This document shows, in pieces, positions 23,368-42,211 of a DNA stretch of 64,000 nt. The notes under the pieces are model-generated. The model saw nothing but the letters and a program-made list of their open reading frames with translations, did no database searches and was not told where the DNA came from. The position numbers and the translations under genes are program-made. The stretch is taken from contig OZ223209.1 in NCBI GenBank assembly GCA_965140415.1, positions 512,001 to 576,000 on the forward strand, read 5' to 3'. How positions within the stretch are numbered: the first letter of the stretch is position 1; every line of letters begins with the position of its first letter. This DNA comes from Myxococcota bacterium (GTDB lineage: Bacteria > Myxococcota_A > SURF-8).

Positions 23368-23598
23368 TTAGGGCTTATAGGAACGCAGCAGCAGCTTGAT
23401 GTCTTCATGAATAGTGCGCACGTCCTGGCGCAGCAATTGTAAATCCGTGCATACCTGCGCGCGCAATTCCGCCACGCGCTTATCGGTGTATTGTTCGGTA
23501 TTGGCATAAAGGGTAAAGGCGGCTCCAACCTGCGTCACGAACAGAAAAATGGCGATCCAGATCCAACCGCGCCACTCCGCAATGATTTTCACGTTCAT
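23368..23598 (-). CDS. small TM + coiled-coil protein, putative holin-like
   Basis: 76 aa, one TM (WIWIAIFLFVTQVGAAFTL) then an amphipathic coil; last gene of the cluster. Confidence 0.45.
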   Translation of the reverse strand: MNVKIIAEWRGWIWIAIFLFVTQVGAAFTLYANTEQYTDKRVAELRAQVCTDLQLLRQDVRTIHEDIKLLLRSYKP

Positions 23599-23612
23599 CG
23601 GTTTTTCTTCTT

Positions 23613-24340
23613 TCAACATCGGCTGGACAAGGCCAGGCAGGGACCGGTATTGTCGTCGTCTTGGATTTCAATGCTTGTACCGCTTGGAATCCAGGCGAGG
23701 ACTCCCCAGTACCAAGGACTAACAGGCGTGGTGGTTCTTGAATAGGGAACGTCTTCGTCCAAATTGACGGCCAACTCGACGGTGATGAAACTGCTACTGG
23801 TTACGGAATGGATGCACCGCGCCCGATGGTATTCAGTGCGGCGGATGTGTCGTACACAACTGGAGTGATTGTGGCAGTCTCCGTTCCCGCTGAACGCCTG
23901 ATCTGAACTCGTGTTCGTAATGAAAGAGCGTAGCGGTGTGGGATAAAAGGAACAATCGAACTGCAACGCCAGTTCCAGCCGCAATTTTCCAGCAGTCCGG
24001 TACCGTAATGAAAATCCGGCAGTATGCTGCAAACCGCCTGTTCGTGATCGTCTCCGGTAAGCACGATCGGCAGACTGAAATCGGATACGCTGCGGTAGAG
24101 TCCGCGCATCAGGTTTGTTGTTACCGGTATGGTAGCGCCGCTTCCATTTCCGGTGTGATCGAACAGGATCGGATTGGCGCGCACGCTGTTGCCCGGCGTT
24201 GGGGTATCGAGATAGCCTTCAACCAGCCAACCGGTGTTACTGGCCAACGCCATGATCTTGTCTGCACTGACGGCGCGCGTGTTTTGCAGCGCCTGTGTGG
24301 TCAAACTGCGGAAACTGGTGGATACTCGCATGGTGGACAT
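23613..24340 (-). CDS. tail fibre/appendage paralog 3, frameshifted at ~23807
   Basis: ORF 23801-24340 ends GASIP*; restoring one T gives GASISVTSSSFITVEL..., continuing to the stop at 23613 (242 aa). N-terminus resembles the two upstream genes. Confidence 0.6.
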
Positions 24341-24355
24341 GATATTTCCTTTTCG

Positions 24356-25336
24356 TCAGGGCGTTAGCAGGGCGTAGATATGCGGGCGGGGTTCGTGTTG
24401 AAATCCCTTGAACCAGAGACAGGCATCCGAGCGGTCGAACACTGGTTCATAGATCGAGAAGAAGGTGGTGTTTTCCTCGATTTCGATCTTGAAGTCATGG
24501 TCGCTGTTTTTAGCCAGGGAATTACAATCGTAACTCAGATAACGCCAGCGAGGTATCAAATCCTTTTTCGGGTAGAACTTCAACCAATCGCCGGTGTCGC
24601 CGTCGTGCGACAGGCACAAGCGCAGCATCCATTCGAAATCGGGGCTTTCACCCAGTTCGTGGTACTCTTCGCCATCCCCTGTCGACGTGGACAAGGTACA
24701 GGCTGCCGCAAAAAGCAGGTGCAGGCGATTCGCCCAGGCTGGCAAGTAAAGCGTGAACGTAGTGGAACCGATTTGCTGGTATGGATGCACGGCTGCACCG
24801 GATAAGGGCGTTTGGCTCAACGGTGAAAACAGTCGGACAAGCGTCGCCCCACGGCTTTCGTCGTATTCGACATGCTTGATAAAGTACCGCCCCGTATTGC
24901 CGGAATCTTCCAGCGTCAAATGCCTGCAACCGTCGAATAAGGCGGCTACATTGTTGCCGACCCAAAAACGCCACAGGTTGTTGGGCTGGCTGCCATCCAC
25001 AACGGGAAATGGGTATTGCGGTGTATACAGGTAATCCGAATCGGCACAGGAGAAAGCACGAGTTAGTGGAAGGTATTCGTCATTGGCATTGATCGCAGGA
25101 ACGGATGGCATTCCGATTTCGTAGAGAAGATACAAGGGGATTTGTGCTCCGCCCTGTTCGGCGTGATCGTGACCGGAGAGCGAGTTCGTCGATCCGGGAA
25201 GATTTTGATCGGTGGCGATCTTGTACAGGTAATTGATATTCTGACCGATATCCTCCAGGTCCGAGGCAACGATCGGGCGATCCACCTGAATTCGATCCGC
25301 ACTGATCGGTTGAAATTCCGTGTCTTGGAAACTCAC
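24356..25336 (-). CDS. tail fibre/appendage paralog 2
   Basis: N-terminal ...NINYLY...LSGHDHAEQGGAQI module; position after the hub gene. Confidence 0.55.
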   Translation of the reverse strand: MSFQDTEFQPISADRIQVDRPIVASDLEDIGQNINYLYKIATDQNLPGSTNSLSGHDHAEQGGAQIPLYLLYEIGMPSVPAINANDEYLPLTRAFSCADSDYLYTPQYPFPVVDGSQPNNLWRFWVGNNVAALFDGCRHLTLEDSGNTGRYFIKHVEYDESRGATLVRLFSPLSQTPLSGAAVHPYQQIGSTTFTLYLPAWANRLHLLFAAACTLSTSTGDGEEYHELGESPDFEWMLRLCLSHDGDTGDWLKFYPKKDLIPRWRYLSYDCNSLAKNSDHDFKIEIEENTTFFSIYEPVFDRSDACLWFKGFQHEPRPHIYALLTP

Positions 25337-25337
25337 G

Positions 25338-26042
25338 CTATTCTCCTTTCAACAAGCCGATTCCGTTGTACAGCGAACCGGAAAACGGTTTGAAGCGGGC
25401 GTCGTCTGAACAGATGTGCGCTGTGGCTTCGGAACTGCTCGATTTCAATTCCAACTTCAACTGCCGCCAGCCGGTAAATGACAGATCGTTAGGCAAGGAG
25501 AGTTTTAATTCCACCATGTTCCAGCCAATCATCCAGCAACTGGCTTCACAGGAAGCAAGGCTTTGCCCGCTATCCAATAAAGACAGCCGTGCCCAGGCCA
25601 GGCCATCGCCACTGACTTTCATCAACACGCGCAGAATCAGTTCTTTGTAGTCTCGGTCGAGCAGGATGCTTGGCGTTAAAAGACTGATCCGCGATCCCGC
25701 CGCTTCTACGCCTGCTGCACTTGGGCCGCCGGTGTTGAATATCTCCCAGTACACCGGTTGGTAAGACGTCTCGGTGGTCTGCTGTGGATAGATGTGACCG
25801 ATATCGAAACTTCCGTGACGTGCAACGTAGGCTCCGTCGCCATCGCGTCCGTGACAATGTCCGGAAACCGTCTGCGTGGAATTTCCGGCAATCGCTTCGT
25901 CGGTAAGGTATTCGCCTAGTGCCGCCTGGTTTCTCATCATCTCGAACAGAAGATCCGCCCCAAGCGGCTGATCCTGTGCGACCTCCTCATCGTACAAGGG
26001 GCGAATCTCGTTCATCGTGTGGTTTGGAATGCGGTTGCTCAT
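25338..26042 (-). CDS. tail fibre/appendage paralog 1
   Basis: N-terminal ...NQAALGEYLTD...VSGHCHGRDGDGAYV module. Confidence 0.55.
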   Translation of the reverse strand: MSNRIPNHTMNEIRPLYDEEVAQDQPLGADLLFEMMRNQAALGEYLTDEAIAGNSTQTVSGHCHGRDGDGAYVARHGSFDIGHIYPQQTTETSYQPVYWEIFNTGGPSAAGVEAAGSRISLLTPSILLDRDYKELILRVLMKVSGDGLAWARLSLLDSGQSLASCEASCWMIGWNMVELKLSLPNDLSFTGWRQLKLELKSSSSEATAHICSDDARFKPFSGSLYNGIGLLKGE

Positions 26043-26051
26043 GTGCGTTTC

Positions 26052-29000
26052 CTAAAATGAATATTGATAAGCTGCAGCATCGTTCTGACCCAGGTGGGTA
26101 TCGCTATCAGCCAGATACACGAACAACTGCAACATACCTGTGGAAGATTCATGCTCGTCGTACTCGCAGGGGAGCAGCAGATCCCCGCTTTGTGGCGAGA
26201 AACCGGGAAGTTCATTGAGCGTAAGCGTGGCGATTTGTGCCGATTCCCACAGGCTGTCATCAATGCCGTCGATGGCGACTGTCAGTGGATCGGATACCGT
26301 GTAGCTGCCTGTTTGCAGGCTGATAATCTGCTTGATGCAAAGCTTGTCTCCGGAACTGTAGACCTCGCTTGGCTTTACATCGTCGGGCCAGAAATCGTCG
26401 TAGATGATAGTAAGGTGTTTTTCCGCTTCATCCCAACTGTCGATAGTCGCTGCCGGTGCAATGCCGCCATAGTTCGCCAGGCCACGTTCCAGCAGTCCAA
26501 GGCGAGTTACGTTGTCGGCAAGATCCACCTCCAACTCTACGATGTCGTAAATCACGTTGGAGATGCCGCGTGCGCCGGAGCCGTCGGGTAACAAGGATGA
26601 GCTAAGCTGTACCCGGCCAAAGAGTCCTAGCTGCCATGCGCAGGATGAGAAAACCGCTGCTTGTGCGCTGGTTAAGAAGCGATTGTATTGTCGTATCCAG
26701 CGCCAGGCCAGATCGTAGGCGATTCCTTCTCCGTCGCCGTCGAACAATCCGTTACGGGTAGAGTGCAAACAGTGTGAATCGATGGAAAGGGTATGATCGT
26801 CATCGTTGAAGTAAATCGAATCGGAAGTGGAATCGTCATCGATAATCACCTTGGAGCCGAATTCCTCGCTGGTCGGATCGTAATCGAGTTGCAACTCTAC
26901 ACGGTTGATGCGCAGATCTTCCCGCCATTGAATTTGCGGTGCGTCTACGATTTCCGCATGCGTGATGTCCAGATCGGCGCTTTCGTGGGCCAGTTTCGGA
27001 TAAAAGCGCGAGGCAGCGATTTGTCCGGCGCGATTGGCAAACAGGTGAAAACCGAACGAACGGCAGATATCATCGATCACATCGCGATAGCTTTGTTCGG
27101 GTAACACCAAGGCCCGAAACGATTTTCCCCCGCTAACGGCATAGTCGATTGCCAGTCGTTGCAGACTTTCGGTGTCGATCAGCCCGTCGGGCAGCGTCAA
27201 CCCATACAGGGAGTTCGGGCGGCTGCTATCCAGCAAGTCATGCAAGAACTCGATCGGTTGCGCGTTGAAGATTCGCAACAAGCCGCTGGAGATGTAATAA
27301 AACCGGTCGGAGCTCCACAGCTCTTCTACCAAGCTGCCGCCACTGTGAGCGCAAGCGGTTGTCTGGTAAAGCCCTCGCACGCAATCGTCCAGATAGGGTA
27401 TCGGTGTCAGTGTCACCGTGGCCAGGCTGCTGTGGGAGGCGGCTTCGCTTCCCCATGCGCCTCGATAACAATTTAAAAGGCGGCTGCCATCGCCACTGCT
27501 TTCGTACAGAATCGTTTCCGAATCGATTTGAATGATTCCCCCGCGAGCGGGAAAGCCGCTGCTGTCCGAAAGATAAATCACATCCTCTTCGGCATCGATG
27601 GCCTGTGCCAGTATACTTGTAACGGGAGAATCCGAATCGGCCAGTTGCAGGCAATCGTAGTAGATGTATTCATCATCAACGCGCACCACATGTCCGATTG
27701 AAAGTAGGTGCTGGGTGGAACCCGGCAGTGTTTCCGGCTGGAGGTAGATGCGCCGATTATAAGGGCCGATTCCGGTGGCGATGGCCTGGTTGGCCGTAAT
27801 TTCCGCATAGACCGTATCCGGTTGTTCCGAATAATAATCCTGATTCTGATAGAGTTTGCCCTGTTCGGTCTCGAAACCGAGGCTCGGCCAAATCGAGTCC
27901 CGGCGCTGTTGATCGCTGCCATCCACCACGAGTTGAAAAAGAAAACCAACCATGACTCTAAGCTGAATATTGCCATCGGCGGTGATCGTGAATTCCGCTT
28001 GCAGTTCGGGAGCCTGTTCATAGAAAATGCGTTGCAGCACGGTGGCGATATTTCGCGGATGGCCGATCGAATCGATATCGGAAAGATATGCTCCCGGAGG
28101 CAGAGAAACACTCACGTGGCTCCAGGGCAGGCCGGGAAAGGCGCAGTGCCGGAAATAGATGGTGTCGTTACCGGCGCGGCCAGAACCGTCACGCTGACCA
28201 TGTAGCATCAGCACGGGAAAGATGCTGGAGCGTCCCATGTGACGACCGATGCGGCTGTTCAAACGCGAGAGCGGATCGCTTAAACTGATGGAAAAGGTGG
28301 CCAGGTTATCCGCAGAAGGCGACACCGAATCGATGAATCCGGCAAACAGCACCGGATCTTCCGCGCTGTAATCGGTGCCGAGCGCCTTTTTGACCTGCAT
28401 CAAACGGTTTCGCCAATAGGGATTGCATGGCCAGACCCTTGAGCCGGAAGGATGTGCTTTGGCCTCTGTTCCCAATACGCCGCGCTCGCAGTCGGTCAGA
28501 GTGTTGTCATTCAACCCGGTATAACGAATCGCTTCGTGTCCGACATACGCCACCCCGCTTAGGGCAAAACCTTCGCTGCTATTTAAGACGAGACTGGTTG
28601 CCGACTCAGTGATCTCTTCCGATAATAACTGTGCCAGTGTTTCAGCTCGCCTGGGAGCGAAAGCCGAAGTCAGTGCGCCATCCAGATCCGCGAGATTGAC
28701 CTGAAGGCCGCCGCAGGTGGAAATTCCTGCTTTCGGATCGATATGCTGCGAAAGCGAACTCGGCAGGTTTTGCTGGTCGAGATAATAGGCGGCAATCAGG
28801 TTGGTGCCATTCAGATCCAGTCCTTCAATCGTTAAATATAAAGGCTGCGTTGCGGCATCATGTCGGAAGTAGACGGTATTGTATTCCGAATCAACTTCGG
28901 AATGATCGGTAGAAAGGCTGTAAACTCCGGCCAGCCCGGCAAAGGAGAATTCCAGATAAGAAGTTGTACTGGTGTTTGCTTCGGCTCGAACGGCTAGCAG

Positions 29001-29165
29001 GCGCTCTCCTCTTGTCGGTGTTCCCCATGATCCTTCAGTATAACAGTTCAGGTTCCAACTGGTTGGATCGAGCAGTTCCGCGTCGATGATGGAAGGAGAT
29101 TGCAGGCGCACTCGAATGCGATCCGGGGCGGTGAAAAAACCGCTTCGTTGAAAACGGATGGTCAT
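26052..29165 (-). CDS. large tail tip/baseplate hub protein (1037 aa)
   Basis: Position after TMP and Dit-like genes; VLFAGFIDSV, SYRDVIDDICRSFGFHLFANRAGQI, INRVELQLDYD; RGxxGT/S.AxxH repeats. Confidence 0.7.
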   Translation of the reverse strand: MTIRFQRSGFFTAPDRIRVRLQSPSIIDAELLDPTSWNLNCYTEGSWGTPTRGERLLAVRAEANTSTTSYLEFSFAGLAGVYSLSTDHSEVDSEYNTVYFRHDAATQPLYLTIEGLDLNGTNLIAAYYLDQQNLPSSLSQHIDPKAGISTCGGLQVNLADLDGALTSAFAPRRAETLAQLLSEEITESATSLVLNSSEGFALSGVAYVGHEAIRYTGLNDNTLTDCERGVLGTEAKAHPSGSRVWPCNPYWRNRLMQVKKALGTDYSAEDPVLFAGFIDSVSPSADNLATFSISLSDPLSRLNSRIGRHMGRSSIFPVLMLHGQRDGSGRAGNDTIYFRHCAFPGLPWSHVSVSLPPGAYLSDIDSIGHPRNIATVLQRIFYEQAPELQAEFTITADGNIQLRVMVGFLFQLVVDGSDQQRRDSIWPSLGFETEQGKLYQNQDYYSEQPDTVYAEITANQAIATGIGPYNRRIYLQPETLPGSTQHLLSIGHVVRVDDEYIYYDCLQLADSDSPVTSILAQAIDAEEDVIYLSDSSGFPARGGIIQIDSETILYESSGDGSRLLNCYRGAWGSEAASHSSLATVTLTPIPYLDDCVRGLYQTTACAHSGGSLVEELWSSDRFYYISSGLLRIFNAQPIEFLHDLLDSSRPNSLYGLTLPDGLIDTESLQRLAIDYAVSGGKSFRALVLPEQSYRDVIDDICRSFGFHLFANRAGQIAASRFYPKLAHESADLDITHAEIVDAPQIQWREDLRINRVELQLDYDPTSEEFGSKVIIDDDSTSDSIYFNDDDHTLSIDSHCLHSTRNGLFDGDGEGIAYDLAWRWIRQYNRFLTSAQAAVFSSCAWQLGLFGRVQLSSSLLPDGSGARGISNVIYDIVELEVDLADNVTRLGLLERGLANYGGIAPAATIDSWDEAEKHLTIIYDDFWPDDVKPSEVYSSGDKLCIKQIISLQTGSYTVSDPLTVAIDGIDDSLWESAQIATLTLNELPGFSPQSGDLLLPCEYDEHESSTGMLQLFVYLADSDTHLGQNDAAAYQYSF

Positions 29166-29881
29166 TGGCAGTACTCCAATGGTAGTGAAACGTTGTAAAA
29201 AGCCGGATTAGGTAACGACCAGCAACGGCGCGGGCGAAACTCCGTACCGGATTGAACGTTCACATGTACTCGATCTAAAAACAAATAGGCATCGCTGCTT
29301 AACTCGGCGCCCCAATCGGTTTTCAGATAAAGAGGTTGCCGGTCCATAACATTGCCGAGCCAAAGAGACTGTAACCGCGCCAGTTGATCGGGCGATAACG
29401 CAGAAAGTTGCAGGTTTCGGGTTTGTCCCGCAGAGATTCTCTGGCTGTTGCTCACACCTGTCAAAGACATCGCCATGCTTGAACGAGAAGTCGTGAACGG
29501 ACTGTCATCCTGGCTTGGATCGTCGCACAACATGGTATTCGCCGGGTTATTCGGCGAACTCCACAGGGGTTGCGCAGGAGAATGCAAGCCTTGGGAAAAT
29601 CCAAGAACTTCGTGGCAGCCTGTAGCCGGAAAATTGAGCTGCACTGGTTGGGTGTGCCATAGCAACACCTGTGCGCCACAATGATCCGTGCGTTGTTGCA
29701 ATCGAACCTGCATTCCGAAATCGAAAAGTTTTTCGGAAAGATTGGCAAGCAGTTCCTGTAACGTCGGATAGCTTCCCGTGTTCAGCGAGACATCCAGCCA
29801 GATTAAGGAATCCGATGTCTTTACCTGCAAGGATCTGTTTTCAGAATCAATGTTAATCGGTGAAAAAATGGCCAGGGTCAT
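29162..29881 (-). CDS. minor tail protein (distal-tail-like), paralog B
   Basis: Synteny; similar to 29878-30582; ATGA overlaps on both sides. Confidence 0.5.
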   Translation of the reverse strand: MTLAIFSPINIDSENRSLQVKTSDSLIWLDVSLNTGSYPTLQELLANLSEKLFDFGMQVRLQQRTDHCGAQVLLWHTQPVQLNFPATGCHEVLGFSQGLHSPAQPLWSSPNNPANTMLCDDPSQDDSPFTTSRSSMAMSLTGVSNSQRISAGQTRNLQLSALSPDQLARLQSLWLGNVMDRQPLYLKTDWGAELSSDAYLFLDRVHVNVQSGTEFRPRRCWSLPNPAFYNVSLPLEYCQ

Positions 29882-30582
29882 GCGGATTCCTTTCGTAAGG
29901 ACAACTGCGCCCGAAAGTAGCCCGACTGCGGCGGTTGCCGTTTAAGCCAGTTTGTGGAATTTTGTATGAAATCCTGATCCAGCGTGCAGGAAAGAAAGTC
30001 TGGCGTGTCATTCGCATACAGGCGCAGGGGACGTCCGTCTGCGGCCAACGCCATCCACTCCTGAAAACGGTGCGCCTCTAAAGTTGTCAGGTAATCAAGT
30101 TTCAGTGACATCCGAGATTGCTGTCGAATCGGAAGCGAAACTATTTGTCCGCTATAGCCCTGGGCCTGGTGTGACTCAACGTGAATTTCTTCAGCCGAAA
30201 TCTCGCCGAAGAACTCCCGAAAAAACAAACCGGTTGGCGTGCGTTCCGAGGTATGAGTGGTTCCTTCGGAAAATTCGATAGCGGTATTGAATCCCAATAA
30301 ATCCAGCAGGGCGCTGTGCGTGGCTGGCTGGATATCGGTCACAAGGCGAAAATATTCGGTTGCACCGATGGTAACGATACCGTTTGTGTCGAGGTTTGCA
30401 TAGCCACCTGAAAATCGTGCGGATATCTTTTCCGAAAGCGCCGCGATGAGTTCATGCAGATCCGTATAGCTACAGGCTGGGATGGCGATTTCGTACAACG
30501 ATGCGCCCTTGGCGGTATAGAAGCGACAATTGCTGTATCCGGCTTGATCAACCAGGATCTGTTGACAATGCAGGCTCGGCAT
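29878..30582 (-). CDS. minor tail protein (distal-tail-like), paralog A
   Basis: Directly after the TMP; translationally coupled. Confidence 0.5.
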   Translation of the reverse strand: MPSLHCQQILVDQAGYSNCRFYTAKGASLYEIAIPACSYTDLHELIAALSEKISARFSGGYANLDTNGIVTIGATEYFRLVTDIQPATHSALLDLLGFNTAIEFSEGTTHTSERTPTGLFFREFFGEISAEEIHVESHQAQGYSGQIVSLPIRQQSRMSLKLDYLTTLEAHRFQEWMALAADGRPLRLYANDTPDFLSCTLDQDFIQNSTNWLKRQPPQSGYFRAQLSLRKESA

Positions 30583-31310
30583 CAGACTGCCTCCACGGCG
30601 CGGCGGGCGATCAACGGCGCGGTGCGCCCCGAATGACGATTGATCGCTCCTGCGGCAATGCGAGCCAAGCCGCGTTCGTCGTAAACACCACCGGAAAAGT
30701 GGTAGTAGTACACGATCTGTGGCGAGCTTTGAGATTCGCCGCTGTCCAGTGAGTTGGTATTTACAGCCTGAGATGAGGCGGCGGATGAACCGGAGGCCGA
30801 GTAGCTTAGACTACTGCCGGAGCCGCCGTCTCCCTGGCTTTTCAAGGTATCGGAGAAGGCTTTGATCACGCCACCGATCGCGATCAGTGCCAACCCGCCT
30901 GCAAACAGCGCCGCAGGGTTACCGCTGAATAGTGCTGAAAGTACGTTGCTGGCGGCAATCGCCGCAGTACCAAGCATGATGCTGAACTGGGAAAGAATCG
31001 AAAGGAAGTTGGCGAAAAAGCTTTTACCGGAAACTTCGCCACCCGTCAGCAATACGCCGACCATATAGCCGACCAGTTCGGTGGTGCGATTGACAAGCGT
31101 TTCCAATGCACGTGTCATGCTGCCGACTGCGCGCGCCTGGCTCGTGAATTGCAGCGTATGCATTTTTTGAACGTGACGGGTGGTCTCCGTGTACAGCTTT
31201 CGCACCTGCTTATGATAATTCTGTTCAACGACCAAACGCTGTTTGGCGCTAGGAGTGGCGGCTGTTGCAGACTCGCCCGCCTTGGATTGTTGGTTCGTAC
31301 TGCTGAGCAT
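30582..31310 (-). CDS. short tape-measure-like protein (242 aa)
   Basis: Follows the chaperone pair; Ala/Gly-rich hydrophobic helices, Ser/Gly linker, C-terminal ..IAAGAINR; GGAGGT RBS. Confidence 0.6.
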   Translation of the reverse strand: MLSSTNQQSKAGESATAATPSAKQRLVVEQNYHKQVRKLYTETTRHVQKMHTLQFTSQARAVGSMTRALETLVNRTTELVGYMVGVLLTGGEVSGKSFFANFLSILSQFSIMLGTAAIAASNVLSALFSGNPAALFAGGLALIAIGGVIKAFSDTLKSQGDGGSGSSLSYSASGSSAASSQAVNTNSLDSGESQSSPQIVYYYHFSGGVYDERGLARIAAGAINRHSGRTAPLIARRAVEAV

Positions 31311-33909: not shown

Positions 33910-34622
33910 GGCTGCAACCTCACTACCAGCTTGTTTTCGACTCCGTCATCAATGACATCGTTTTGATTGTGATCCATTTCCGAACGTGCCATCAATTCCT
34001 GAAAACCCTGTTCATACTGCTCTCGCCATTGTTGCTGCTTGTGCCAGTGACCGGAATCCTGCCCGGATGCCGACCGCAGATAAATCAAACTCAAGGTCAA
34101 CAGGCGGTGACAACGATCCAGCCCCGCCTTGTTACGTACCAAGCCCGGTGATACACCACGAGCGCGTAAGTGAAGCCGAATGTGTTCTTCCGCTTCGGCG
34201 ATCAATTCCTGAAAATCCGGTGAAAGTTGGTCGTCTTCATAAGACAGCGCCGGGGAAAGAGCCAGTAAATCTGCGCTCGTCAGTTGTGAGCGCCAGGGAT
34301 CGGCAAGCACATCGAAATAAAACACACGCCGGTATTGGCTTTGATCGACCGTAAAGGAAATCTCTGCTCGATAATTGCTGCCAATGGGCCATTGGTCAGT
34401 GTCGCTGGTGTCCAGCTCGATCTCGAACCGCTGCAAATCAGCGTTCCAGTTGGCCGATTGAGCACTTGCAACAAGAGAATTCCCACGTGGATTCCAAATA
34501 TCAAACTGGCCCTGTAACGGTGCTTCGGGATCGCTTTGTAATTCACGATTGTTTACGACAGGCCGGAAAAACAATTGTTCGGACGGAGATCCGCTGCGGA
34601 TTTCATCGGTATAGTAAAGCAT
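33906..34622 (-). CDS. head-tail adaptor with N-terminal Ig-like extension
   Basis: C-terminal helical part LTSADLL...LIAEAEEHIRLHLRARG...; synteny. Confidence 0.5.
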   Translation of the reverse strand: MLYYTDEIRSGSPSEQLFFRPVVNNRELQSDPEAPLQGQFDIWNPRGNSLVASAQSANWNADLQRFEIELDTSDTDQWPIGSNYRAEISFTVDQSQYRRVFYFDVLADPWRSQLTSADLLALSPALSYEDDQLSPDFQELIAEAEEHIRLHLRARGVSPGLVRNKAGLDRCHRLLTLSLIYLRSASGQDSGHWHKQQQWREQYEQGFQELMARSEMDHNQNDVIDDGVENKLVVRLQP

Positions 34623-34645: not shown

Positions 34646-36100
34646 TTAGGGTAGCGATAGCACGTGGAGTACTGCTTTCCAGTTGATGCTAGTTGCCGCC
34701 GTACCGGTGACAAGTAGCTCGGCAGCCTGCTCGCTAGTATTGACACTAAGCGTTGCGTTCCAGTCTGCGTTGCTTTCCGATGCAAACATTGAGAGCGTAC
34801 TTCCCTGCTGGGTCACATCCGCACCGATTCCACGGTAAAACAAACCCTTTATGCAATAAACGGCGTGGTGGTCATCTCCCTGCTTGACAAGGATGCGGGC
34901 TTCTACGAGCTTGGTTTCTCCCTCGGCAAGGGCAACCGTGGCAAGAGCAGTAGCCGTTGCATCCGTCGTGGTGATCTCATGCGTAGAAATGCTGTCGAAG
35001 CCGTCTAGGCCATCGATTTCGGAATGTAGATGCATTGGAAATGGTACGCTGCAAATCGGAGATTGATCCGCGTCTAGATCGCCTGCGCCATCCCCTATGA
35101 TGTCACTGTAATCACGCTCGACAAGCGTTGTCGTCTGCCCGTGCTTGATTGGCCAGGTGGGAGTACCCAATAGGGCTACGGTTTCAAAACCGCTGCTTGA
35201 TTCGGGATATTCCGGTGCGCCGTAAACCATAGTCGTGGCTACAAGATAAAAATCGTTTGTGCGTGTGCTATCTTGTGTCCAGTTAACGCCGTCGCTGGAG
35301 TATTTGTAAATCGAGGAAAAGTCCGTTGGACTGGGAAGATCGCCACAACATACGCAACCGGGGCCGTCTACAACAATCCAAACCGATGCACCCGCAGCTA
35401 ACGGAATGTTCACGTAGAAGACATGTTCGCTACCCCGATCGTAGTAAAAACTGGCCCAGTCTTTATTAACGGTTGCAACCATGTTTTCAGACGTAGGCTC
35501 ATCGGGATTCGTCCCCGAGCCGCATGAATGCACACTGTAGGTTCCGTTGGCCCAGTTGTAATAATCTGGAGCCGCCCGAATACCGAGTGAAATAATATTT
35601 CGATCCGTATCCGTATTGTTTGTGAGCTTGAAGGCGCGGATCACATTGCACACGGGGGTTAGGTTGCTGAGCGGCGGAAGAGTGGAGTTGTTGATAAGTT
35701 CGGAGCTACCCCCAGAAACTTCCGATCCTTTCTTTACACGAGTAATGCCGCTGACTGGATCGTACTCCAGAATTCCGAGCGCTGCCATGCCCGAATTGAC
35801 GGGAAACGGTGCAGTGCTTTGCCAGGTGGCGGGAAGTTGCTCGTTTGCTATGCCGTTTACCGTGCCCGAGCAAAGATCGAAGCGCAAAGGGCCAAGATTT
35901 TGCAGGATAGGTTGAGCATGTTCCGGGTAAGCGCGTCCACGAATGTTACCATTCTGATCGCGCAAAAGAGGAACAGATGCATCGATCTGCATTGAAGCAA
36001 ACGGAACATGCTGAGCTACCAACGGAAAGCGATGACTGTCCAACGCTTTGCCGTGCGAGAAACCGTCGCATTTCTTTTCAAAACTGTTCAGTTGAGGCAT
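34646..36100 (-). CDS. virion fibre/spike protein (484 aa)
   Basis: Start MPQLNSF at 36100; beta-rich; C-terminal TTTDATAT...VTGTAATSINWKA module seen in phage fibres. Confidence 0.5.
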   Translation of the reverse strand: MPQLNSFEKKCDGFSHGKALDSHRFPLVAQHVPFASMQIDASVPLLRDQNGNIRGRAYPEHAQPILQNLGPLRFDLCSGTVNGIANEQLPATWQSTAPFPVNSGMAALGILEYDPVSGITRVKKGSEVSGGSSELINNSTLPPLSNLTPVCNVIRAFKLTNNTDTDRNIISLGIRAAPDYYNWANGTYSVHSCGSGTNPDEPTSENMVATVNKDWASFYYDRGSEHVFYVNIPLAAGASVWIVVDGPGCVCCGDLPSPTDFSSIYKYSSDGVNWTQDSTRTNDFYLVATTMVYGAPEYPESSSGFETVALLGTPTWPIKHGQTTTLVERDYSDIIGDGAGDLDADQSPICSVPFPMHLHSEIDGLDGFDSISTHEITTTDATATALATVALAEGETKLVEARILVKQGDDHHAVYCIKGLFYRGIGADVTQQGSTLSMFASESNADWNATLSVNTSEQAAELLVTGTAATSINWKAVLHVLSLP

Positions 36101-36107: not shown

Positions 36108-36665
36108 CTATGCAATCGTATAAATGTTAAGCACAACGCCTTCACCGTTTTGTTCTGCATCGAGATACACACCTGCAAGATCGATTCGGCTACCGGCTGG
36201 ACAAGTAATGGTGTAGGATTCACCCGCTTCCAAAGGTGCAACTGGCAAACTGCTGTAGTGCACGGAGCTATTGCCGACAAATACCTTGCCGAGATTGTTC
36301 GACTTTGCGGTGATATCAACACGCCAGGTATAACTTGAACCGGCGGCTAGTGGTACCGGCGTTCCCGCGCTTGTGACCGTAACGGCTTGTGATGCAATGG
36401 AAAGTGTGGAGGCGTCCGGTGCAAGTTGTACGCTAGGTTGCGCAGCGATGGTTACGGCGGAAGTGTCGCAGAGAGTGACTTTGCCATCCAGCGAATCCAG
36501 CGCGCTACGGATATCCGGGGAATTGGTTTCATACACATGCAAATCGCCGTCTTCATCGACCTGCGCTCGGTGTTCGCCGCTTGCGTCTTTCAATTCGACT
36601 GCACCAAAGGAAACGTCGGCCATCTCCAATGTGATATCGGTATTCGGGTAGGTTTTTTCCGCCAT
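36108..36665 (-). CDS. virion accessory/head decoration protein
   Basis: GGAGGT RBS; C-terminal beta-sandwich-like ITAKSNNLGKVFVG...PLEAGES...VYLDA. Confidence 0.5.
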   Translation of the reverse strand: MAEKTYPNTDITLEMADVSFGAVELKDASGEHRAQVDEDGDLHVYETNSPDIRSALDSLDGKVTLCDTSAVTIAAQPSVQLAPDASTLSIASQAVTVTSAGTPVPLAAGSSYTWRVDITAKSNNLGKVFVGNSSVHYSSLPVAPLEAGESYTITCPAGSRIDLAGVYLDAEQNGEGVVLNIYTIA

Positions 36666-36667
36666 GC

Positions 36668-36946
36668 TTACCTCCAACTCATAGCGACGTTGACAGATGC
36701 GTCGGTCAAATCGCTGGCCACGGCGCGGACTTCATACCAACCGTAGTTTTCCAGGTTCACTTCACCGCTTTCACTCAAGGTTTCGATGTCGATCCAGTCC
36801 GCACCCGCCTGTCGTGCCTGAATGGCACAGCTTGCGCTTCCTGTTATGGCGACTGCAAACAGCATACGCTCATATAGCGCGGCAGGCTGTGCCGCACCTT
36901 CGGTGTCTTGCGTGCATTGCAAGATGGTTTTGGAGTGGTATCCCAT
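36668..36946 (-). CDS. small beta-rich virion accessory protein
   Basis: 92 aa, GGAAAGGA RBS, located in the head module. Confidence 0.5.
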   Translation of the reverse strand: MGYHSKTILQCTQDTEGAAQPAALYERMLFAVAITGSASCAIQARQAGADWIDIETLSESGEVNLENYGWYEVRAVASDLTDASVNVAMSWR

Positions 36947-37018: not shown

Positions 37019-37047
37019 TGGGAGTCGATCCCTAAAGGAGAAGACTT

Positions 37048-37404
37048 TTAGCAGGAGAAAGAGAGCAGATAGGTGAAAGAGGGCGTGTCACTCCCTCCGA
37101 TGGTGGCGTCGTAGCGATAGTAGCGGTACTTCTGAGCACCGATGGCCGCCTGAATCTTTCCGCTATCCGTGATCTGCGGCAAAGACAGAATCTCGGTCCA
37201 GCTATCGCCGTCTTCAGAACCTTCAATAGCGATATCCAAAGTCGGCGAGGTGCCGCTTACATCGCTGACGAAGGCTTGCACCATGCAGGTTTCCGGCAAA
37301 CTGCCGAAGTCGTTGCTGTCACCGGTCGTGCTCGAGGTCTGCTCGCCCGCCGCTTTAAGCAGCAGCTCATCGTCGTAGCGGGAGCGCGTTCGTTGCTGGC
37401 TCAT
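37048..37404 (-). CDS. capsid cement/decoration protein (BPP-1 Bbp16-like)
   Basis: 118 aa after the MCP; DELLL...DFG...TLDIAIEGSEDG...KYRYYR jelly-roll-like pattern. Confidence 0.55.
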   Translation of the reverse strand: MSQQRTRSRYDDELLLKAAGEQTSSTTGDSNDFGSLPETCMVQAFVSDVSGTSPTLDIAIEGSEDGDSWTEILSLPQITDSGKIQAAIGAQKYRYYRYDATIGGSDTPSFTYLLSFSC

Positions 37405-37419
37405 TATTGATTCTCCTTG

Positions 37420-38328
37420 TTAGCTGGTTTGGGTGACGCCCTGCAAGCGGGCCGCCGATTTGGGATGCAGAATGACGAACGAGGCCAGCCATTCGATTAC
37501 CGTCAGGTAGCGCAGGTCGCTTTGCAGACCCATGTCGATGACGTCCATCACGTGATCCTGCACGCCGCTGATATATTCCTCCGCTCCGAAGCGCACGGCG
37601 TAAATCGAACCGCAGGTGTCGCCGGAGCCGCAGCTTTCGTCGAAACCGAGGATGTCGTCGCCGCTCTGATCTTCTTCCACGATGCGGATGGGAACGCCGC
37701 CATACATTGTCACCTGGCGACCGAATGCGTCTTCGCCATAGGAAATGCGCCCGTCGGTTCGCAATAGCTTGGTGACTTCGCGCCGCATGGCTTTGCTCAT
37801 CAGCAGCATGTCCGGCATTCCGGCTACGGAATCGATCAGGTCGTCCAGCATGGCTACCGTCAACGCCGCACCGTTATCACCGGCGGTGATCACCTGGTTG
37901 CCGGTCAAGCGGGCGTTCAGTCCATCGAACTGGCGCGGATCGCTGTTGGAGTTTCCGTCAAAGAACATGCGGGTAAAAAACAGCGCCGCCGCTTTGGCTT
38001 TCAGGCGGTCGTGAATGGCGCGCAGTTCGCCCACCGTTTCGCCGCGTTCGCCGACCAGCGCGCGGTCAACCTGGGATTTGCCACCGAAGATCTTGGTGGT
38101 TTCCACGTTCTGCTGCAACACGCCGGTGGATTCGGTGTAATCCTCGTTGATGCCACGAAAGGCGATGCCAGGCAGAATTTCCTCGCGGTTGTATTTGAAT
38201 ACGCCGCCGGGCACGTTGATAAAGGGCATGGCCTCCAGAATGGGCGAGACCATGGGGAAGACTTCGACCACGTTTCGTTTGATGAAGTCGGTTTCCAGTT
38301 TGGCGGCTTCTAAAAGCGTTAACGCCAT
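37420..38328 (-). CDS. major capsid protein (BPP-1 Bbp17-like)
   Basis: MALTLLEAAK...SPILEAMPF...YNREEILPGIAFRGINEDYTESTG...FDGLNARL...SIYAVRFG...AARLQGV. Confidence 0.85.
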   Translation of the reverse strand: MALTLLEAAKLETDFIKRNVVEVFPMVSPILEAMPFINVPGGVFKYNREEILPGIAFRGINEDYTESTGVLQQNVETTKIFGGKSQVDRALVGERGETVGELRAIHDRLKAKAAALFFTRMFFDGNSNSDPRQFDGLNARLTGNQVITAGDNGAALTVAMLDDLIDSVAGMPDMLLMSKAMRREVTKLLRTDGRISYGEDAFGRQVTMYGGVPIRIVEEDQSGDDILGFDESCGSGDTCGSIYAVRFGAEEYISGVQDHVMDVIDMGLQSDLRYLTVIEWLASFVILHPKSAARLQGVTQTS

Positions 38329-38358
38329 GGGTAATTTCTCCTTGTGATGGGCGGTCCG

Positions 38359-38841
38359 TTACTGAGTTTTATAATTACGGGCCGCAAGTTGTTGCGTACT
38401 GGCTCCGGCGGTGTTCCGGCTGGCGGCCACCAGCGGAGCGCAAGGGATAGTCGCTGCCGCACCCTCCGGTGTGACAGTCGGGGAATTGAAGAAATAGGGA
38501 ACTTCGCTTTGAATCCGCTTGAACCATTCGTCAAGCTGTTCGGCATCGTCGGATTCTGGCAGACCTTTTCCGTTGATTGCAGTTATAAACGTGTCGATGT
38601 CTACGCAACCGGCTTGTTGCGCGCGCAATTCCAGTTTGTGTTTCACGTTCAGCGAATCCAGCGACTGCTGTAGCTGTGTGGCCTTCTGCTCGCTTTCTTC
38701 GCGTGCTGCGGCGGCTTTGCGCATGTCGGCTTTCAGACGTTTTACGTACTGCTTGTCTTCATCGGGCAGTCCGTTTTTCTGCATGTCGGCAAGTTGTTGT
38801 TCCAATTCTTCAATTCGTTGTAAGGCTTCAGATAGATCCAT
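38359..38841 (-). CDS. capsid scaffolding protein
   Basis: Coiled coil, YVKRLKAD, ..PYFF near the C-terminus; directly upstream of the MCP; GGAGGAG RBS. Confidence 0.7.
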   Translation of the reverse strand: MDLSEALQRIEELEQQLADMQKNGLPDEDKQYVKRLKADMRKAAAAREESEQKATQLQQSLDSLNVKHKLELRAQQAGCVDIDTFITAINGKGLPESDDAEQLDEWFKRIQSEVPYFFNSPTVTPEGAAATIPCAPLVAASRNTAGASTQQLAARNYKTQ

Positions 38842-38960
38842 GCTTCTCCTCCAAGAAACGGGGACAGAACGCACGCGGGCCTCCGCCCGGCGTACAGGGC
38901 AAAATGTGTTAGGAAATTATTGTTTCGATTGATTGATGGAAAACGGATATCGAACAGATA

Positions 38961-40400
38961 TCAGGGAGTGCTCGCAAGCATGCTGTCTTCACGATGGCGG
39001 CTATACAGTTCACGCGCCTGTTCCTGATCGATGCCAAGACGTTCGGATAGAATTTCCACCGGGGAGCGCAAACCAAGACTAATTTCGCGTTCCAGGTTTT
39101 TCAATTCTTCTTCTTTGGATAGTGGAATCACCTGTTCCGGGAAGGTTACGCTCAGATGCGTGTCTTTCAGATCGGAGGCGCCATCGAAGTCGCCCAGTAG
39201 CGCCAGTTCCCGCAGAATCGGCCACAGGTCTTCCTCTTCGATGGGCAGCAGCCGGTCGATCAGATCCTGGCGGTATTCGATTTCCGGCTGCTTGTCGTGA
39301 AATTTGGCCACGCCGGAAAGCAGTTCCACATCAAAGGTAAAAGCGGATGGTATGATCTCGTTGGACTGAGCAAACAGCTTCAGGAAAAAGAGCAGGTTCT
39401 GATTACGCTCCGCTTCGCGCGCTTGCACCGCCAGGGGTGTCAGCCGCTTGTCGTCATCTCCCAGGCAGATAATCGCTCCCGCACCGGTCGCTGGATTGGC
39501 TGTGCCCAGTTCTTCGGAGCTGCCATTAAAAACGTAAGCCGGAAAATCGGTCTGGCGCGAATTCATCGCGCCGCGTGTCAGTTCATGATCGAGCCAGTGA
39601 GCGGCGTGAAGCAGGCTGTGGGGCACGTCCGGAAAGAGTTCCGCACCGACCGGTTCATCTTTTCTCAATAGCACGAAAGGATAGCGATCCATACCGTTAT
39701 ACGCAGACCATTCCGCTGGCTGCGTCGTTAGCGGCACGAAGTTTTCATCCAGGCGTTCGACGTGCAGTCTGCGTCCGCCTTTCGGCTTGGGTTGCAGGCG
39801 ATAGCGCACGTAACCTACTGCTGTCCCGCCGCTTAAGGGCGAATCGGGTTTGTCGCCAAGCGGAATCATAATGCTATCCGCTTCCTGAAGGTTGGTCGGG
39901 TCCGTGCCGCTCTGCTCCACGATGAGTTGATGCGGAGGCAGTACGCTGATCACCGGGCAGTGTCGCCGGAAGTCGATTTGCACCCACAGCACCGAACAGT
40001 TGAGCAGTTCATATAATCGTAGCGCCCATTTCATGCGTGCATTCAGGCGGCATTGCCGCAGCAGGCGACGGGAAACGGCTTGTGCGGGATGGTCTTCCGG
40101 CAGTGGCGAACGTTCGGCGTCTAGCAGCATGCGTTTCGGTGGAATGCGATACAGCTTGGCCTTGGTATCCACCACCTTTCGCAGCAGGTTTACCGTCAAC
40201 AGATTCTGCGTCATCTGATCCGCGTTATTGGGATACAATCGGCGCAGGCGGCGGCGCAGGTCATCCATGCTGGAGTCGTTGTCTAAATAGCGATCCAGTA
40301 ATTCCTCGCAGTTGCTCGCCCATGCGCTATGGGCTGCGGCGCGGGCGCGTTGCTGATCCTGCGCAAACGTAGAGCGCCAGTCTTTTCCGAACAAGTGCAT
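38961..40400 (-). CDS. portal protein
   Basis: 479 aa after terL; VNLLRKVVDTKAKLY, YPFV, LSGVAK, VTFPEQVIP...LGLRSPVE. Confidence 0.8.
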   Translation of the reverse strand: MHLFGKDWRSTFAQDQQRARAAAHSAWASNCEELLDRYLDNDSSMDDLRRRLRRLYPNNADQMTQNLLTVNLLRKVVDTKAKLYRIPPKRMLLDAERSPLPEDHPAQAVSRRLLRQCRLNARMKWALRLYELLNCSVLWVQIDFRRHCPVISVLPPHQLIVEQSGTDPTNLQEADSIMIPLGDKPDSPLSGGTAVGYVRYRLQPKPKGGRRLHVERLDENFVPLTTQPAEWSAYNGMDRYPFVLLRKDEPVGAELFPDVPHSLLHAAHWLDHELTRGAMNSRQTDFPAYVFNGSSEELGTANPATGAGAIICLGDDDKRLTPLAVQAREAERNQNLLFFLKLFAQSNEIIPSAFTFDVELLSGVAKFHDKQPEIEYRQDLIDRLLPIEEEDLWPILRELALLGDFDGASDLKDTHLSVTFPEQVIPLSKEEELKNLEREISLGLRSPVEILSERLGIDQEQARELYSRHREDSMLASTP

Positions 40401-40409
40401 CGTGCCTCC

Positions 40410-41741
40410 TTAGAGATAGGGAACGAGTTTAAGCCGTTCGCGGCTGAAGGGGTGTTCGTCGGCCACGTAGTAATCCAGCGCGTCGCCGCAGTGATCCAGC
40501 ACGAAACGCGGATCGCCGGGGTCGCGCACTTTTTCCTTTTCGAAACTGCCGGGTATGAAAAGCGACTGTTCCAGGCTGCGTATCAGGTATTTGCAGTGCG
40601 GCGCAATGAATAGACGGCTTTCTCCCAGGGTGTTCTTGAACAGAAAGTTCACGGCGTTGGTTCTGTCGCGGACGGACGGATTCGCCGAGCGCGCCTTCAC
40701 GCGGATTTTAAAATCCGGCAGATGGCCGAGCCGTTCGCGAATGATGGCATAGTCGCTGCCTTTGCCGCGATGATCGCGGGCGTAGCCGGTGGCGTCGCCG
40801 TGAATGCGCAATCCGGCGCGATGATCCCCGTATTTTCGTAGGATTTCATTGCATAGTTCCGCCGTGTCCGATCCGTGGCGCAGCACGATTTCGTCAACTA
40901 CCTCACAGCGGGTGGGACTGGGATTCTGCATGGCCAGCGCCACCATGAAATCGACGTTGAAATCGAAACTGAAATGCAGCGGTAATCCGGCCCGGTAACA
41001 AATGTTGCTATCCAAATGCCGCTCGCGATCGAAATTTCGGTACACGCGACCGCGAGAAATCGTTCCAGTGTGGCCCTCCAAATAGACCTGGGCGTACTCG
41101 TCATCGACAAGCTGCCGGATCGACTCGATATAGTCGGGTTTCTGCTCCAGTAAAAAGTGGTTTTCGCTGGTGGCTGCACGGATATAGCGAAAATTCGGCA
41201 ACACATTATCCGGCTCGATAAAGGTTCGATACAGATGACCGTAATGTTCTTCCGGGTTGCTGGTGATGAACATGCGGTAGCGCCGGGGAAGACGTTTGGA
41301 AATGCGTCGATAGTTACTGTGACGCAGGCGTGCCATCAGCGCGCGAAAGGTCGTCGCCGGTACTTGAGCGCCCTCTTCTACGTGAATCCAGTTGAACTCC
41401 ATGGAGCTAAGCCGTTGTGGTTGTGACAGGTGCCGGAACCAGATCTGCGAACCGTTTTTCAGTACAAGGTTGTCCGGGGAGCGGTTCCAGCGCTTGACCT
41501 GATCTTTTGGAACGAGTTCCCGCCAGCGCTCGCGGGTCGTGTCGTGCAGCAAAGTGTAGGTGGCTGCGCCAACAAGACCGCGACTGCCTGGATACAGGCG
41601 CGAGAGCAGATAACCCAATAGCACTCCGACCGTCGTCTTGCCGCTGCCCACTCCGCCTTGATACAGGGCGACATCGGTGGGAAGTTCGTGCGGCACCTCG
41701 ATCAGTGCCTTTTGAGATGGAAGCAGGCTAAAAGTCGTCAA
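40410..41741 (-). CDS. terminase large subunit
   Basis: Walker A GGVGSGKT, Walker B WIHVEE, TSNP motif, nuclease SFDFN / HGDATG / DHCGDALDY. Confidence 0.93.
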   Translation of the reverse strand: MTTFSLLPSQKALIEVPHELPTDVALYQGGVGSGKTTVGVLLGYLLSRLYPGSRGLVGAATYTLLHDTTRERWRELVPKDQVKRWNRSPDNLVLKNGSQIWFRHLSQPQRLSSMEFNWIHVEEGAQVPATTFRALMARLRHSNYRRISKRLPRRYRMFITSNPEEHYGHLYRTFIEPDNVLPNFRYIRAATSENHFLLEQKPDYIESIRQLVDDEYAQVYLEGHTGTISRGRVYRNFDRERHLDSNICYRAGLPLHFSFDFNVDFMVALAMQNPSPTRCEVVDEIVLRHGSDTAELCNEILRKYGDHRAGLRIHGDATGYARDHRGKGSDYAIIRERLGHLPDFKIRVKARSANPSVRDRTNAVNFLFKNTLGESRLFIAPHCKYLIRSLEQSLFIPGSFEKEKVRDPGDPRFVLDHCGDALDYYVADEHPFSRERLKLVPYL

Positions 41742-42171
41742 GGCTCAATCCTTCGATAGACAGGGTTTCGATGGGCGTCGGTTCTTCCAGATCCATAAGC
41801 TGTGACAGGCCCGCGTGAACGACCTTCAACACCGCAGCCTGTGCGGAAAGCGATTTCATGGTTTCGGTATGCAGGGGGGTATCCGGTGTGGATTCTTGCA
41901 GACCCTCCACCACGCGCCACCAAAGGCTGAGCAAGGTATGGCGCGCTTCTTCCGACTCGGGCAGAGCGAGGTTCGATTCCCGTTTCAAGAAACCGATTCG
42001 CTTGGGCCAATGTTGGCTGTGCTGTAAAAGCATCTGTTCATCCAGGCCGTAATAGCGGGCGAAGTCGCGCTTTCTCTGGAAGTGAGAGTTGTTCCAAAGA
42101 ACTCGCAATTGTGTTTCGGTCAGTTGTTGGTTGCCTATGAGAAAGGTCTTTTGATCGGTTGCGTCGTTCAT
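41728..42171 (-). CDS. putative terminase small subunit (HTH-like N-terminus)
   Basis: 147 aa overlapping the terL start; KRDFARYYGL HTH-like; GAGGTG RBS. Confidence 0.55.
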   Translation of the reverse strand: MNDATDQKTFLIGNQQLTETQLRVLWNNSHFQRKRDFARYYGLDEQMLLQHSQHWPKRIGFLKRESNLALPESEEARHTLLSLWWRVVEGLQESTPDTPLHTETMKSLSAQAAVLKVVHAGLSQLMDLEEPTPIETLSIEGLSLDDF

Positions 42172-42180
42172 GAGCACCTC

Positions 42181-42211
42181 AAAAAGAAACGGCCAGGACG
42201 AATCCTGGCCG
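42181..42211 (-). terminator. intrinsic terminator immediately upstream of the first cluster gene
   Basis: Minus strand CGGCCAGGA-TTCG-TCCTGGCCG-TTTCTTTTT, then GAGGTGCTCATG. Confidence 0.8.

Follow-up and report, generated by a model that had tools for sequence, protein, structure and literature searches.

What is a complete set of genes for packaging DNA into a tailed, phage-like particle doing in a bacterial chromosome when nothing beside it would let a phage replicate, integrate or leave? The question is raised by a stretch of 64,000 nucleotides from a Myxococcota bacterium (GenBank assembly GCA_965140415.1, contig OZ223209.1, positions 512,001 to 576,000 of the forward strand; hereafter the window, numbered from its first letter), which carries, between 23368 and 42249, a cluster of 22 co-oriented minus-strand genes. 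An earlier note, made from the letters alone, had described the cluster as a head-tail operon without phage life-cycle genes and had proposed that it encodes a novel gene transfer agent (GTA); the observation is here partly confirmed and the interpretation partly supported. The reading we favour, with moderate confidence, is that the cluster is a phage-derived, host-maintained operon for a DNA-packaging particle of siphovirus type, GTA-like by organisation. That it is a domesticated element is well supported; that particles are manufactured, filled with DNA and delivered we infer from the genes, which are what was read here. Four rival explanations are weighed below and rank in the following order: packaging that starts at the locus itself, a host-kept particle with a function other than transfer, a decaying prophage remnant, and one half of a split or helper-dependent element.

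An intact structural cluster without life-cycle genes

The cluster extends over ~19 kb, comprises packaging, head and tail genes separated by intergenic gaps of -14 to +101 nt, and closes with a gene that ends at 23368, so that the earlier count of about 22 co-oriented genes in ~19 kb holds. These genes had been called largely intact, which understates their condition. The single apparent frameshift of the cluster, at 23804, splits the 242-aa penultimate gene (23613..24340) into pieces of 179 aa and ~62 aa; contigs from two public DNA sequencing runs of the same study (X1 and X2, one of them possibly the source of this assembly) have an extra G behind this position, which restores a 242-aa open reading frame (ORF), and the repaired ORF aligns end to end (residues 1-240) at 46% identity with its orthologue in G001, one of the ten genomes of this Myxococcota order that were compared (G000 being the genome of this window). 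The frameshift is an assembly error, one missing G, and because it is the only one, all 22 genes are intact.

Equally informative is what the cluster lacks. A Pfam scan of the window that covered 23 ORFs of the cluster and 17 flanking ORFs found no integrase, repressor, replication, recombination or lysis domain; there is no tRNA in the window, and no direct repeat of at least 11 nt joins the two cluster ends, which leaves the cluster without an att-like repeat. In this respect the earlier claim that integrase, repressor, replication, recombination and endolysin genes, tRNA and att repeats are all missing withstood the window scans. Taken together with matches to the tyrosine recombinase family PF00589 across the genome, discussed below, the domain, tRNA and att checks point to an element that encodes no machinery for replicating, integrating or excising itself.

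The boundaries are compact, with a 55-bp gap at the tail end and 389 bp between proC and the insertion sequence (IS) that lies upstream of the packaging genes. Both distances agree with the earlier description, which had erred on the identity of the neighbour across the 55-bp gap: rather than gltJ-like, this convergent gene (21723-23312) encodes a Zn_ribbon_4 plus GYF_2 protein according to Pfam. Annotation of the cluster itself is sparse. A PHROG family could be assigned to seven of the 20 cluster proteins scanned, and a Pfam family above cut-off to three of the 23 cluster ORFs; because the other 13 of 20 proteins have no PHROG family, the labels 'neck' and 'fibre' used below rest on gene order.

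Inheritance with the host and purifying selection

If the host maintains the cluster, related genomes should hold it too, as the earlier note had anticipated, and collinear copies do occur in six of the ten genomes of the order (G000, G001, G003, G004, G006 and G009). Of the 23 query ORFs, 22 are matched in G004, 21 in G001, 15 in G003 (where the contig ends) and 14 in each of G006 and G009, and G001, G004 and G000 agree exactly in where the cluster begins and ends. G001 and G004, which belong to different genera, share with the metagenome contig L120 a cluster set between the same two flanks, in G001 and G004 an acyltransferase on the side of the small terminase gene (TerS) and, at the tail end, a CarboxypepD_reg protein; between G006 and G009 collinearity extends over the cluster and its two flanks, at 70-76% nucleotide identity. 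The genes just outside every copy are ordinary host genes, and none of ten flank proteins of relatives (G001, G004, G006) contains a phage domain.

Agreement between host and cluster phylogenies had been proposed as a further test. The host tree, from two markers, has the form ((G000,(G001,G004)),G002), (G003,G005), (G006,G009), and the cluster tree, from six proteins, the form ((G006,G009),(G003,(G000,G001,G004))), with the inner trio left as a three-way branching; the two are not in conflict. Selection was gauged from the ratio of nonsynonymous to synonymous substitution rates (dN/dS), which had been predicted to lie well below 1. Between G006 and G009 it is 0.055-0.172 by the NG86 method in seven of eight cluster gene pairs, the dS of the eighth not being computable. 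The dS of the cluster genes is 1.1-3.8, and a host flank gene in the same pair of genomes has a dS of 1.5 and a dN/dS of 0.073. NG86 was used because YN00 failed by saturation for five of nine gene pairs; with dS near saturation the values are rough, albeit far below 1, and they come from the G006/G009 pair only, G000, G001 and G004 having diverged further still. Codon usage is host-like, as amelioration produces: the relative synonymous codon usage of the cluster correlates with that of long host ORFs at 0.956, against 0.969 +/- 0.019 for random host gene sets, and the G+C content at third codon positions is 0.603 in the cluster and 0.608 in the host. These comparisons argue for vertical inheritance with the host under purifying selection, with two caveats, the losses in G002 and L120 described below and a dS near saturation.

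The cluster also appears to be particular to its order. Strong matches to a profile of its portal protein were obtained in seven of 401 genomes of the phylum, all within this order; the 391 phylum genomes outside it gave no strong match and three weak ones (E 5e-7 to 3e-6), and the whole portal family numbers 18 members among 5.8 billion proteins. A query with the capsid protein found nothing in 31 phylum genomes outside the order. An alignment-based contig scan did uncover many capsid-protein relatives beyond the order, with 47-57% identity, in genomes of Desulfobacterota and Alphaproteobacteria (a scan with the single capsid sequence gave no match), and a single match to the 118-aa gene that follows the capsid gene, together with weak matches to the portal, is all else that these loci have in common with the cluster. 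The viral and cultured-phage collections searched contain no close phage relative of the cluster, the best capsid protein on a viral contig being 38% identical and the best large terminase (TerL) of a cultured phage at most 28%; close full-length phage relatives, which the earlier note had named as evidence against domestication, were therefore not found. Two further genomes of the order hold loci that are distant phage-derived relatives and not copies of the cluster: G007 has a capsid-protein relative at 27-29% identity in another arrangement, and the closed genome G008 has a portal gene (37-39%) followed by a TerL gene (29%), an order opposite to that in the cluster. The portal gene of this latter locus (G008:C1:3329678-3332650, L060/L061) contains one in-frame TGA.

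The predicted particle: head and packaging

The packaging genes lie at the 5' end of the operon. TerL (443 aa; 40410..41741) matches phrog_2 (1e-32) and PF04466, Terminase_3 (1.6e-14), has a match to TIGR01547 (3.9e-14) below the cut-off of that family, displays a Walker A motif, GSGKT, and is the only copy of its kind in the genome. Its upstream neighbour (41728..42249) is a TerS candidate by position, with a likely real start at the ATG at 42171 (147 aa); its orthologues in G001 and G004 share 30-35% identity with it in alignments that begin at residue 28/47, and there is no Pfam, PHROG or NCBIfam match.

Between TerL and the scaffold gene stands a 479-aa protein (38961..40400) that is a portal by its modelled fold only. 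PHROG, Pfam and PDB sequence searches give no family match, and an AlphaFold2 model with a predicted local distance difference test score (pLDDT) of 76 retrieved nothing other than phage portals among the top 50 Foldseek hits in the PDB (best E 1.1e-9). The scaffolding protein (38359..38874) matches PF06810 above cut-off (1.1e-9) and phrog_194 (2.4e-7). The major capsid protein (37420..38328) belongs to the epsilon15 gp7 family, with matches to NCBIfam NF045672 ('MCP_gp7_epsi_15'; 2.3e-71, the score of 240.8 bits far exceeding the cut-off of 75), phrog_212 (5.7e-69) and PF20911 (4.6e-12); its only match in a PDB sequence search is a weak one, 8cjz (E 0.0014), with seven chains per entry. Solved capsids of the epsilon15/BPP-1 type are T=7 heads.

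The predicted particle: tail

The tail module is introduced by a 411-aa protein (32198..33433) whose predicted fold is that of a major tail tube protein of the double-domain T5 pb6 / P74-26 type. In PHROG the protein has a weak tail match. The AlphaFold2 model is of high quality (pLDDT 95.5) and finds by Foldseek the major tail protein of SH-Ab15497 (1.2e-13) and the tubes of T5 (1.9e-13), DT57C (6.4e-13) and P74-26 (4.3e-10); PF18906 is matched by five of 50 remote relatives of the protein, and the nearest ESM Atlas clusters (0.98) carry PF18906 also. Because the tube has this fold, the tail would be non-contractile, and we take the model to indicate a tail of the long, siphovirus type.

Downstream follow the chaperone genes and a tape-measure candidate. 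The tail assembly chaperone (154 aa; 31708..32172) ends in the slippery heptamer A_AAA_AAC (31712-31718), and an extension in the -1 frame (31322..31729; listed as a 120-aa ORF at 31322-31684) follows. In all six genomes the heptamer stands in register just before the chaperone stop codon, with an ORF 3' of the chaperone in the -1 frame and that frame open across the heptamer, so that the slippery site reported previously is indeed preserved. A slippery site with a -1 ORF of this kind is the signature of tail assembly chaperones in long-tailed phages. The next gene encodes a tape-measure-like protein of 242 aa (30582..31310), so assigned from its position after the chaperones and a Gly/Ala-rich hydrophobic core; it matches phrog_30292 (8.7e-9), a PHROG family of unknown function, its orthologues have 240-297 aa, and it is a candidate for a short tape measure.

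Comparison with known systems

RcGTA has the gene order TerS, TerL, portal, capsid, neck, tube, frameshifted chaperones, short tape measure and large tail-tip protein. The cluster resembles RcGTA and CcGTA of the Alphaproteobacteria in this order (its short tape measure being a candidate), in consisting of head-tail structural genes and lacking genes for integration or replication, in being inherited with its host under purifying selection, and in that accessory functions are presumably encoded elsewhere. It differs in its host phylum, in being known from its genes alone and in having no detectable sequence relationship to RcGTA: PDB sequence and profile searches with the portal, tube, tail tip, capsid protein and TerL, which gave nothing of use beyond the weak capsid match, returned no RcGTA chain, and the family matches obtained are to an epsilon15-type capsid, a PF06810 scaffold and Terminase_3. 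Where RcGTA has an HK97-type capsid and a prohead protease, the cluster has an epsilon15-gp7 capsid and a scaffold, and its tube is a 411-aa double-domain protein. The separate origin that had been suggested is consistent with all of these features, which support the view that a GTA organisation was probably reached here independently of RcGTA.

The capsid protein matches the group of epsilon15 gp7, BPP-1 and SU10 (NF045672, PF20911, PF17236), in which a small cement or staple protein is encoded directly behind the capsid, and the cluster likewise has a small gene in that place; those phages are short-tailed, whereas the head module is joined here to a long-tail module. The tube shares with those of T5 (pb6), DT57C, P74-26 and SH-Ab15497 a fused double tube domain (probability 1.0; query-normalised TM score 0.55-0.61), although identity is a mere 8-11%, no other T5-like gene was recognised in the cluster, and a tape-measure-like protein of 242 aa is far removed from the very long tape measures and tails of T5-type phages.

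Other classes of phage-derived element fit less well. PBSX of Bacillus subtilis, a defective phage-like particle, resembles the cluster in being kept by its host and in not replicating; it packages host DNA, its tail is contractile, and its locus includes the repressor and lysis genes. The sub-threshold match of TerL to TIGR01547, the PBSX terminase family, is a further point of likeness; a contractile tail and in-locus repressor and lysis genes were not seen in the cluster. The integrase or recombinase, repressor, replication and lysis genes and att sites that define a temperate prophage were not found either. A tailocin, being tail only, is at odds with the presence of terminase, portal, scaffold and capsid genes, and a capsid-forming satellite of the phage-inducible chromosomal island (PICI) type, which would bring its own integrase and regulators and rely on the tails of a helper, with a full tail module and no integrase.

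Weighing domestication against its rivals

Several observations weigh against a domesticated particle that transfers host DNA. Firstly, presence is patchy: searches found the cluster neither in G002 (94% complete) nor in G005 (79% complete), G002, in which both G001-type flank genes adjoin other host genes, being placed immediately outside the group of G000, G001 and G004, and L120 has suffered an internal deletion of ~7 kb (at 10246-10882) that starts at residue 152 of the tape-measure-like protein, takes out the distal tail genes and reaches as far as the last 84 residues of the 326-aa fibre gene. Secondly, G000, G003 and L121 add three further surroundings to the two described above, giving eight loci in five chromosomal contexts. 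Thirdly, cluster proteins are less conserved than the two host markers: among G000, G001 and G004 identity is 39-63% for the former and 65-67% for the latter, and between G006 and G009 the values are 64-77% and 89%. Fourthly, the TerS, TerL, portal and capsid genes of G009 contain at least 11 frameshifts or stops. Fifthly, domain scans of the cluster recognised no lysis enzyme or regulator, and there is a tyrosine recombinase gene (G000:510732-511250) 24 kb past the tail end, a short way beyond the edge of the window. Finally, two features of the packaging and head proteins may imply a cargo unlike that of a classical GTA: the N-terminus of TerS looks helix-turn-helix-like by eye, although Pfam, PHROG and NCBIfam detect no domain there, and because of this resemblance packaging may begin at one particular site and not at random positions; and, because solved relatives of the capsid family are T=7, the head, if it too is T=7, may be roomy enough for the whole 19-kb cluster and so fail the classical size criterion for a GTA. 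The domesticated-GTA reading of the earlier note is consequently supported in part, by the evolutionary tests, and held back by patchy presence and a possible T=7 head.

Patchy presence with empty sites in close relatives had been named in advance as evidence against domestication, and presence is indeed patchy, given the absence from G002 and the deletion in L120. The losses invite the explanation that the cluster is the late half of a temperate phage that has otherwise been lost and that what remains is decaying, for which the missing life-cycle genes, the lesions in the G009 head genes and the active IS lying 121 nt from TerS in this copy could also be cited. Such a remnant would have had to keep 22 ORFs open across a dS above 1 with a dN/dS of 0.05-0.17, to retain a frameshift signal in six of six genomes, to adopt host-like codon usage and to hold identical boundaries in G001, G004 and G000, and we judge it improbable. 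The G009 lesions are themselves likely to be assembly indels, of the kind established for G000, given that two adjacent host genes are frameshifted as well and that the pieces of the G009 capsid gene are 90-98% identical to G006. Separately, a conserved 1198-aa host gene carries one in-frame stop in each of G004, G005, G007 and G003 (L109, L111, L115 and L116), suggesting that errors at the level of single bases are frequent in these assemblies.

Another possibility is that the cluster is the structural half of an element that is still mobile, with its early genes elsewhere or supplied by a helper, in the manner of a split prophage or a satellite. There is precedent for this, since a review describes divided genomes in GTAs and in some defective phages (PMC11841831). 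The tyrosine recombinase gene beyond the tail end is the best PF00589 match of G000, and because similar top matches are present in every relative it is tentatively read as a Xer-type housekeeping gene; in G001, G004 and G006 the matches to PF00589 are hundreds of kb away from the cluster, and the G009 contig has none. With no integrase near any copy, one TerL of this kind in the genome, host-like codon usage, a cluster that co-diverges with the host and no free viral-contig relative above 38% capsid-protein identity, this explanation is the least probable of the four.

The variety of contexts and the features of TerS and capsid could be accounted for if TerS recognised a pac-like site in or near the cluster and headful packaging proceeded outward from it, as in lateral transduction, moving the cluster and its neighbours preferentially. 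Five contexts among eight loci look as if the cluster sometimes moved itself, the helix-turn-helix-like segment of TerS could bind such a site, and a T=7 head could hold more than 19 kb; the review (PMC11841831), by comparison, describes GTA small terminases without a DNA-binding domain, GTA cargoes of 4-14 kb, and a core head-tail cluster with accessory genes elsewhere. One must consider, however, how short synteny is in this order. Blocks conserved between these genomes measure ~2-10 kb in the regions compared, the 19-kb cluster being the longest seen, and differing flanks are therefore to be expected without mobility and need not imply it. The phylogenies of cluster and host are, moreover, free of conflict, and no pac site was identified. 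We regard packaging from the locus as unlikely, if foremost among the rivals.

The evolutionary evidence for a domesticated, GTA-like particle serves just as well for a particle that the host keeps for another purpose, such as a PBSX-like killer of competitors or of prey (these Myxococcota presumably being predatory), in which DNA packaging would be a structural requirement. The tail-tip and fibre genes evolve fastest in the cluster, at 23-43% identity, as diversifying pressure on surfaces would have it, and a gene set between those for head and neck is present in some genomes only and differs in length. This variable gene (34646..36100, ~484 aa from an ATG near 36100; the listed ORF extends to 36322) has no family match, is missing in G001 and G003, encodes 390 aa in G004, 769 aa in G006 and 641 aa in G009, and is possibly a head or neck fibre. 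Fast-evolving fibres would be expected equally of a GTA, though, and domain scans of the cluster found no toxin-like or lytic-enzyme-like protein; a function other than transfer comes second among the rivals and is likewise unlikely.

How the particle might work and why it matters

Under the favoured reading of a host-maintained, GTA-like particle, a host signal would cause the 22 genes to be transcribed as one unit resembling a late operon. Scaffold and epsilon15-gp7-type capsid protein would build procapsids on the portal, and TerS and TerL would fill these with chromosomal DNA, proposed as the cargo because there is no excised or replicated element. A short tail would then be attached, a trimeric double-domain tube of ~35 nm whose length would be set by the 242-aa tape-measure-like protein, the usual rule being 0.15 nm of tail per residue. 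Release could depend on functions encoded elsewhere or on the unassigned last genes of the cluster.

A bolder version of this reading would make the cluster the first GTA of the Myxococcota, independently domesticated, with an epsilon15-type head, a T5-type trimeric tube and a layout convergent with that of RcGTA, down to a very short tape measure, and serving an order of uncultured bacteria in the exchange of chromosomal DNA; we put this forward tentatively, as a possibility rather than an expectation. Experimentally established GTAs come from a handful of lineages, and a limited literature search found no report of one from the Myxococcota. Were the proposal true, it would add a phylum without a reported GTA, and every independent origin is a test of how general, in the evolution of bacteria, the domestication of phage particles for exchanging DNA may be. 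To our knowledge, an epsilon15-type capsid with scaffold and a T5-type double-domain tube have not been seen in a GTA before, and the features shared with RcGTA, an operon of structural genes only and a tape-measure candidate that is short, would suggest that agents of this sort are subject to the same constraints. Annotators, for their part, gain a defined family of 22 genes that standard phage libraries mostly miss.

Remaining genes of the cluster

Five head-proximal and putative neck genes complete the first half of the operon. The 118-aa protein encoded after the capsid gene (37048..37404) has a weak match to phrog_9522 (1.2e-8), is kept in G001, G004, G003, G007, L120, L121 and L081, and from its position is a possible capsid cement or decoration protein. 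A conserved 92-aa protein (36668..36946) has orthologues in five relatives and no family match; the 189-aa protein beside it (36108..36677) is partly conserved, with a match only in G004, over residues 83-189. Beyond the variable gene, a 238-aa protein (33906..34622) is a head-tail connector candidate by position, with orthologues in five of five relatives. It is followed by a 150-aa candidate for a neck or tail-terminator protein (33457..33909), also by position, for which tblastn finds orthologues in four relatives; an ORF of G009 aligns too.

On the tail side, two distal-tail candidates follow the tape-measure-like gene, one of 234 aa (29878..30582; orthologues in G001, G004 and G003) and one of 239 aa (29162..29881), and BLASTP marks them as paralogues (E 4e-4). 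A tail-tip or central-fibre protein of 1037 aa (26052..29165) matches phrog_1101, 'tail protein' (4.9e-10), and phrog_11439, 'tail fiber' (1.4e-9), and has full-length orthologues in five relatives; ESM Atlas leads for it score 0.86-0.88, and those to TipJ and to Phage-tail_3 with Rcc01698_C, at 0.86 and so below the level that counts, had no Pfam support and were not used. Next come two fibre candidates of 234 aa (25338..26042; orthologues in five relatives) and 326 aa (24356..25336), which share an N-terminal segment containing SGHxH (E 9e-7). After the penultimate gene, the operon ends with an 83-aa protein (23368..23619) that has one predicted membrane helix and a coiled-coil-like tail; its orthologues are in G001 and G004, and it is missing in L120.

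Upstream region and surroundings

Upstream of TerS, on the same strand, lies a terminator-like hairpin (42190..42211) with a 9-bp stem followed by TTTCTTTTT, 19 nt ahead of the ATG at 42171. G004 has two terminator-like hairpins upstream of its TerS (L091 352-376 and 539-563), which are near-identical, have 10-bp stems and are spaced 187 nt apart. A conserved anti-termination leader before TerS was considered and dropped, hairpins being present in G000 and G004 and none being found in G001 or G006.

The IS (42371..43710, plus strand) begins 121 nt upstream of the listed TerS ORF, encodes a DUF4372 plus DDE_Tnp_1 transposase, has 36-nt inverted repeats and is a neighbour, not part of the cluster; the genome contains ten copies at 99% identity or more and five at 80%. 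It had been credited with an intact target duplication, a claim that does not hold: inspection by eye revealed none at the ends 42371 and 43710, nor at three other copies. Two stretches of ~100 nt that flank the IS (42229-42334 and 43930-44025) are 76-78% alike, and a solitary sequence resembling an IS end (43818-43852) lies between the IS and proC; these are possibly traces of an older insertion or duplication.

Further afield, a single plus-strand ORF of 3742 aa (9229-20457) lies beyond the tail end, and tblastn gave no match to it in the stretches around the clusters of relatives. In L121 the cluster abuts a block of six host genes (255-7847) whose counterpart in G000 (492547-500282) is only 35 kb away from the cluster's tail end but faces the other way relative to it, a hint that the two once shared a neighbourhood that has since been rearranged.

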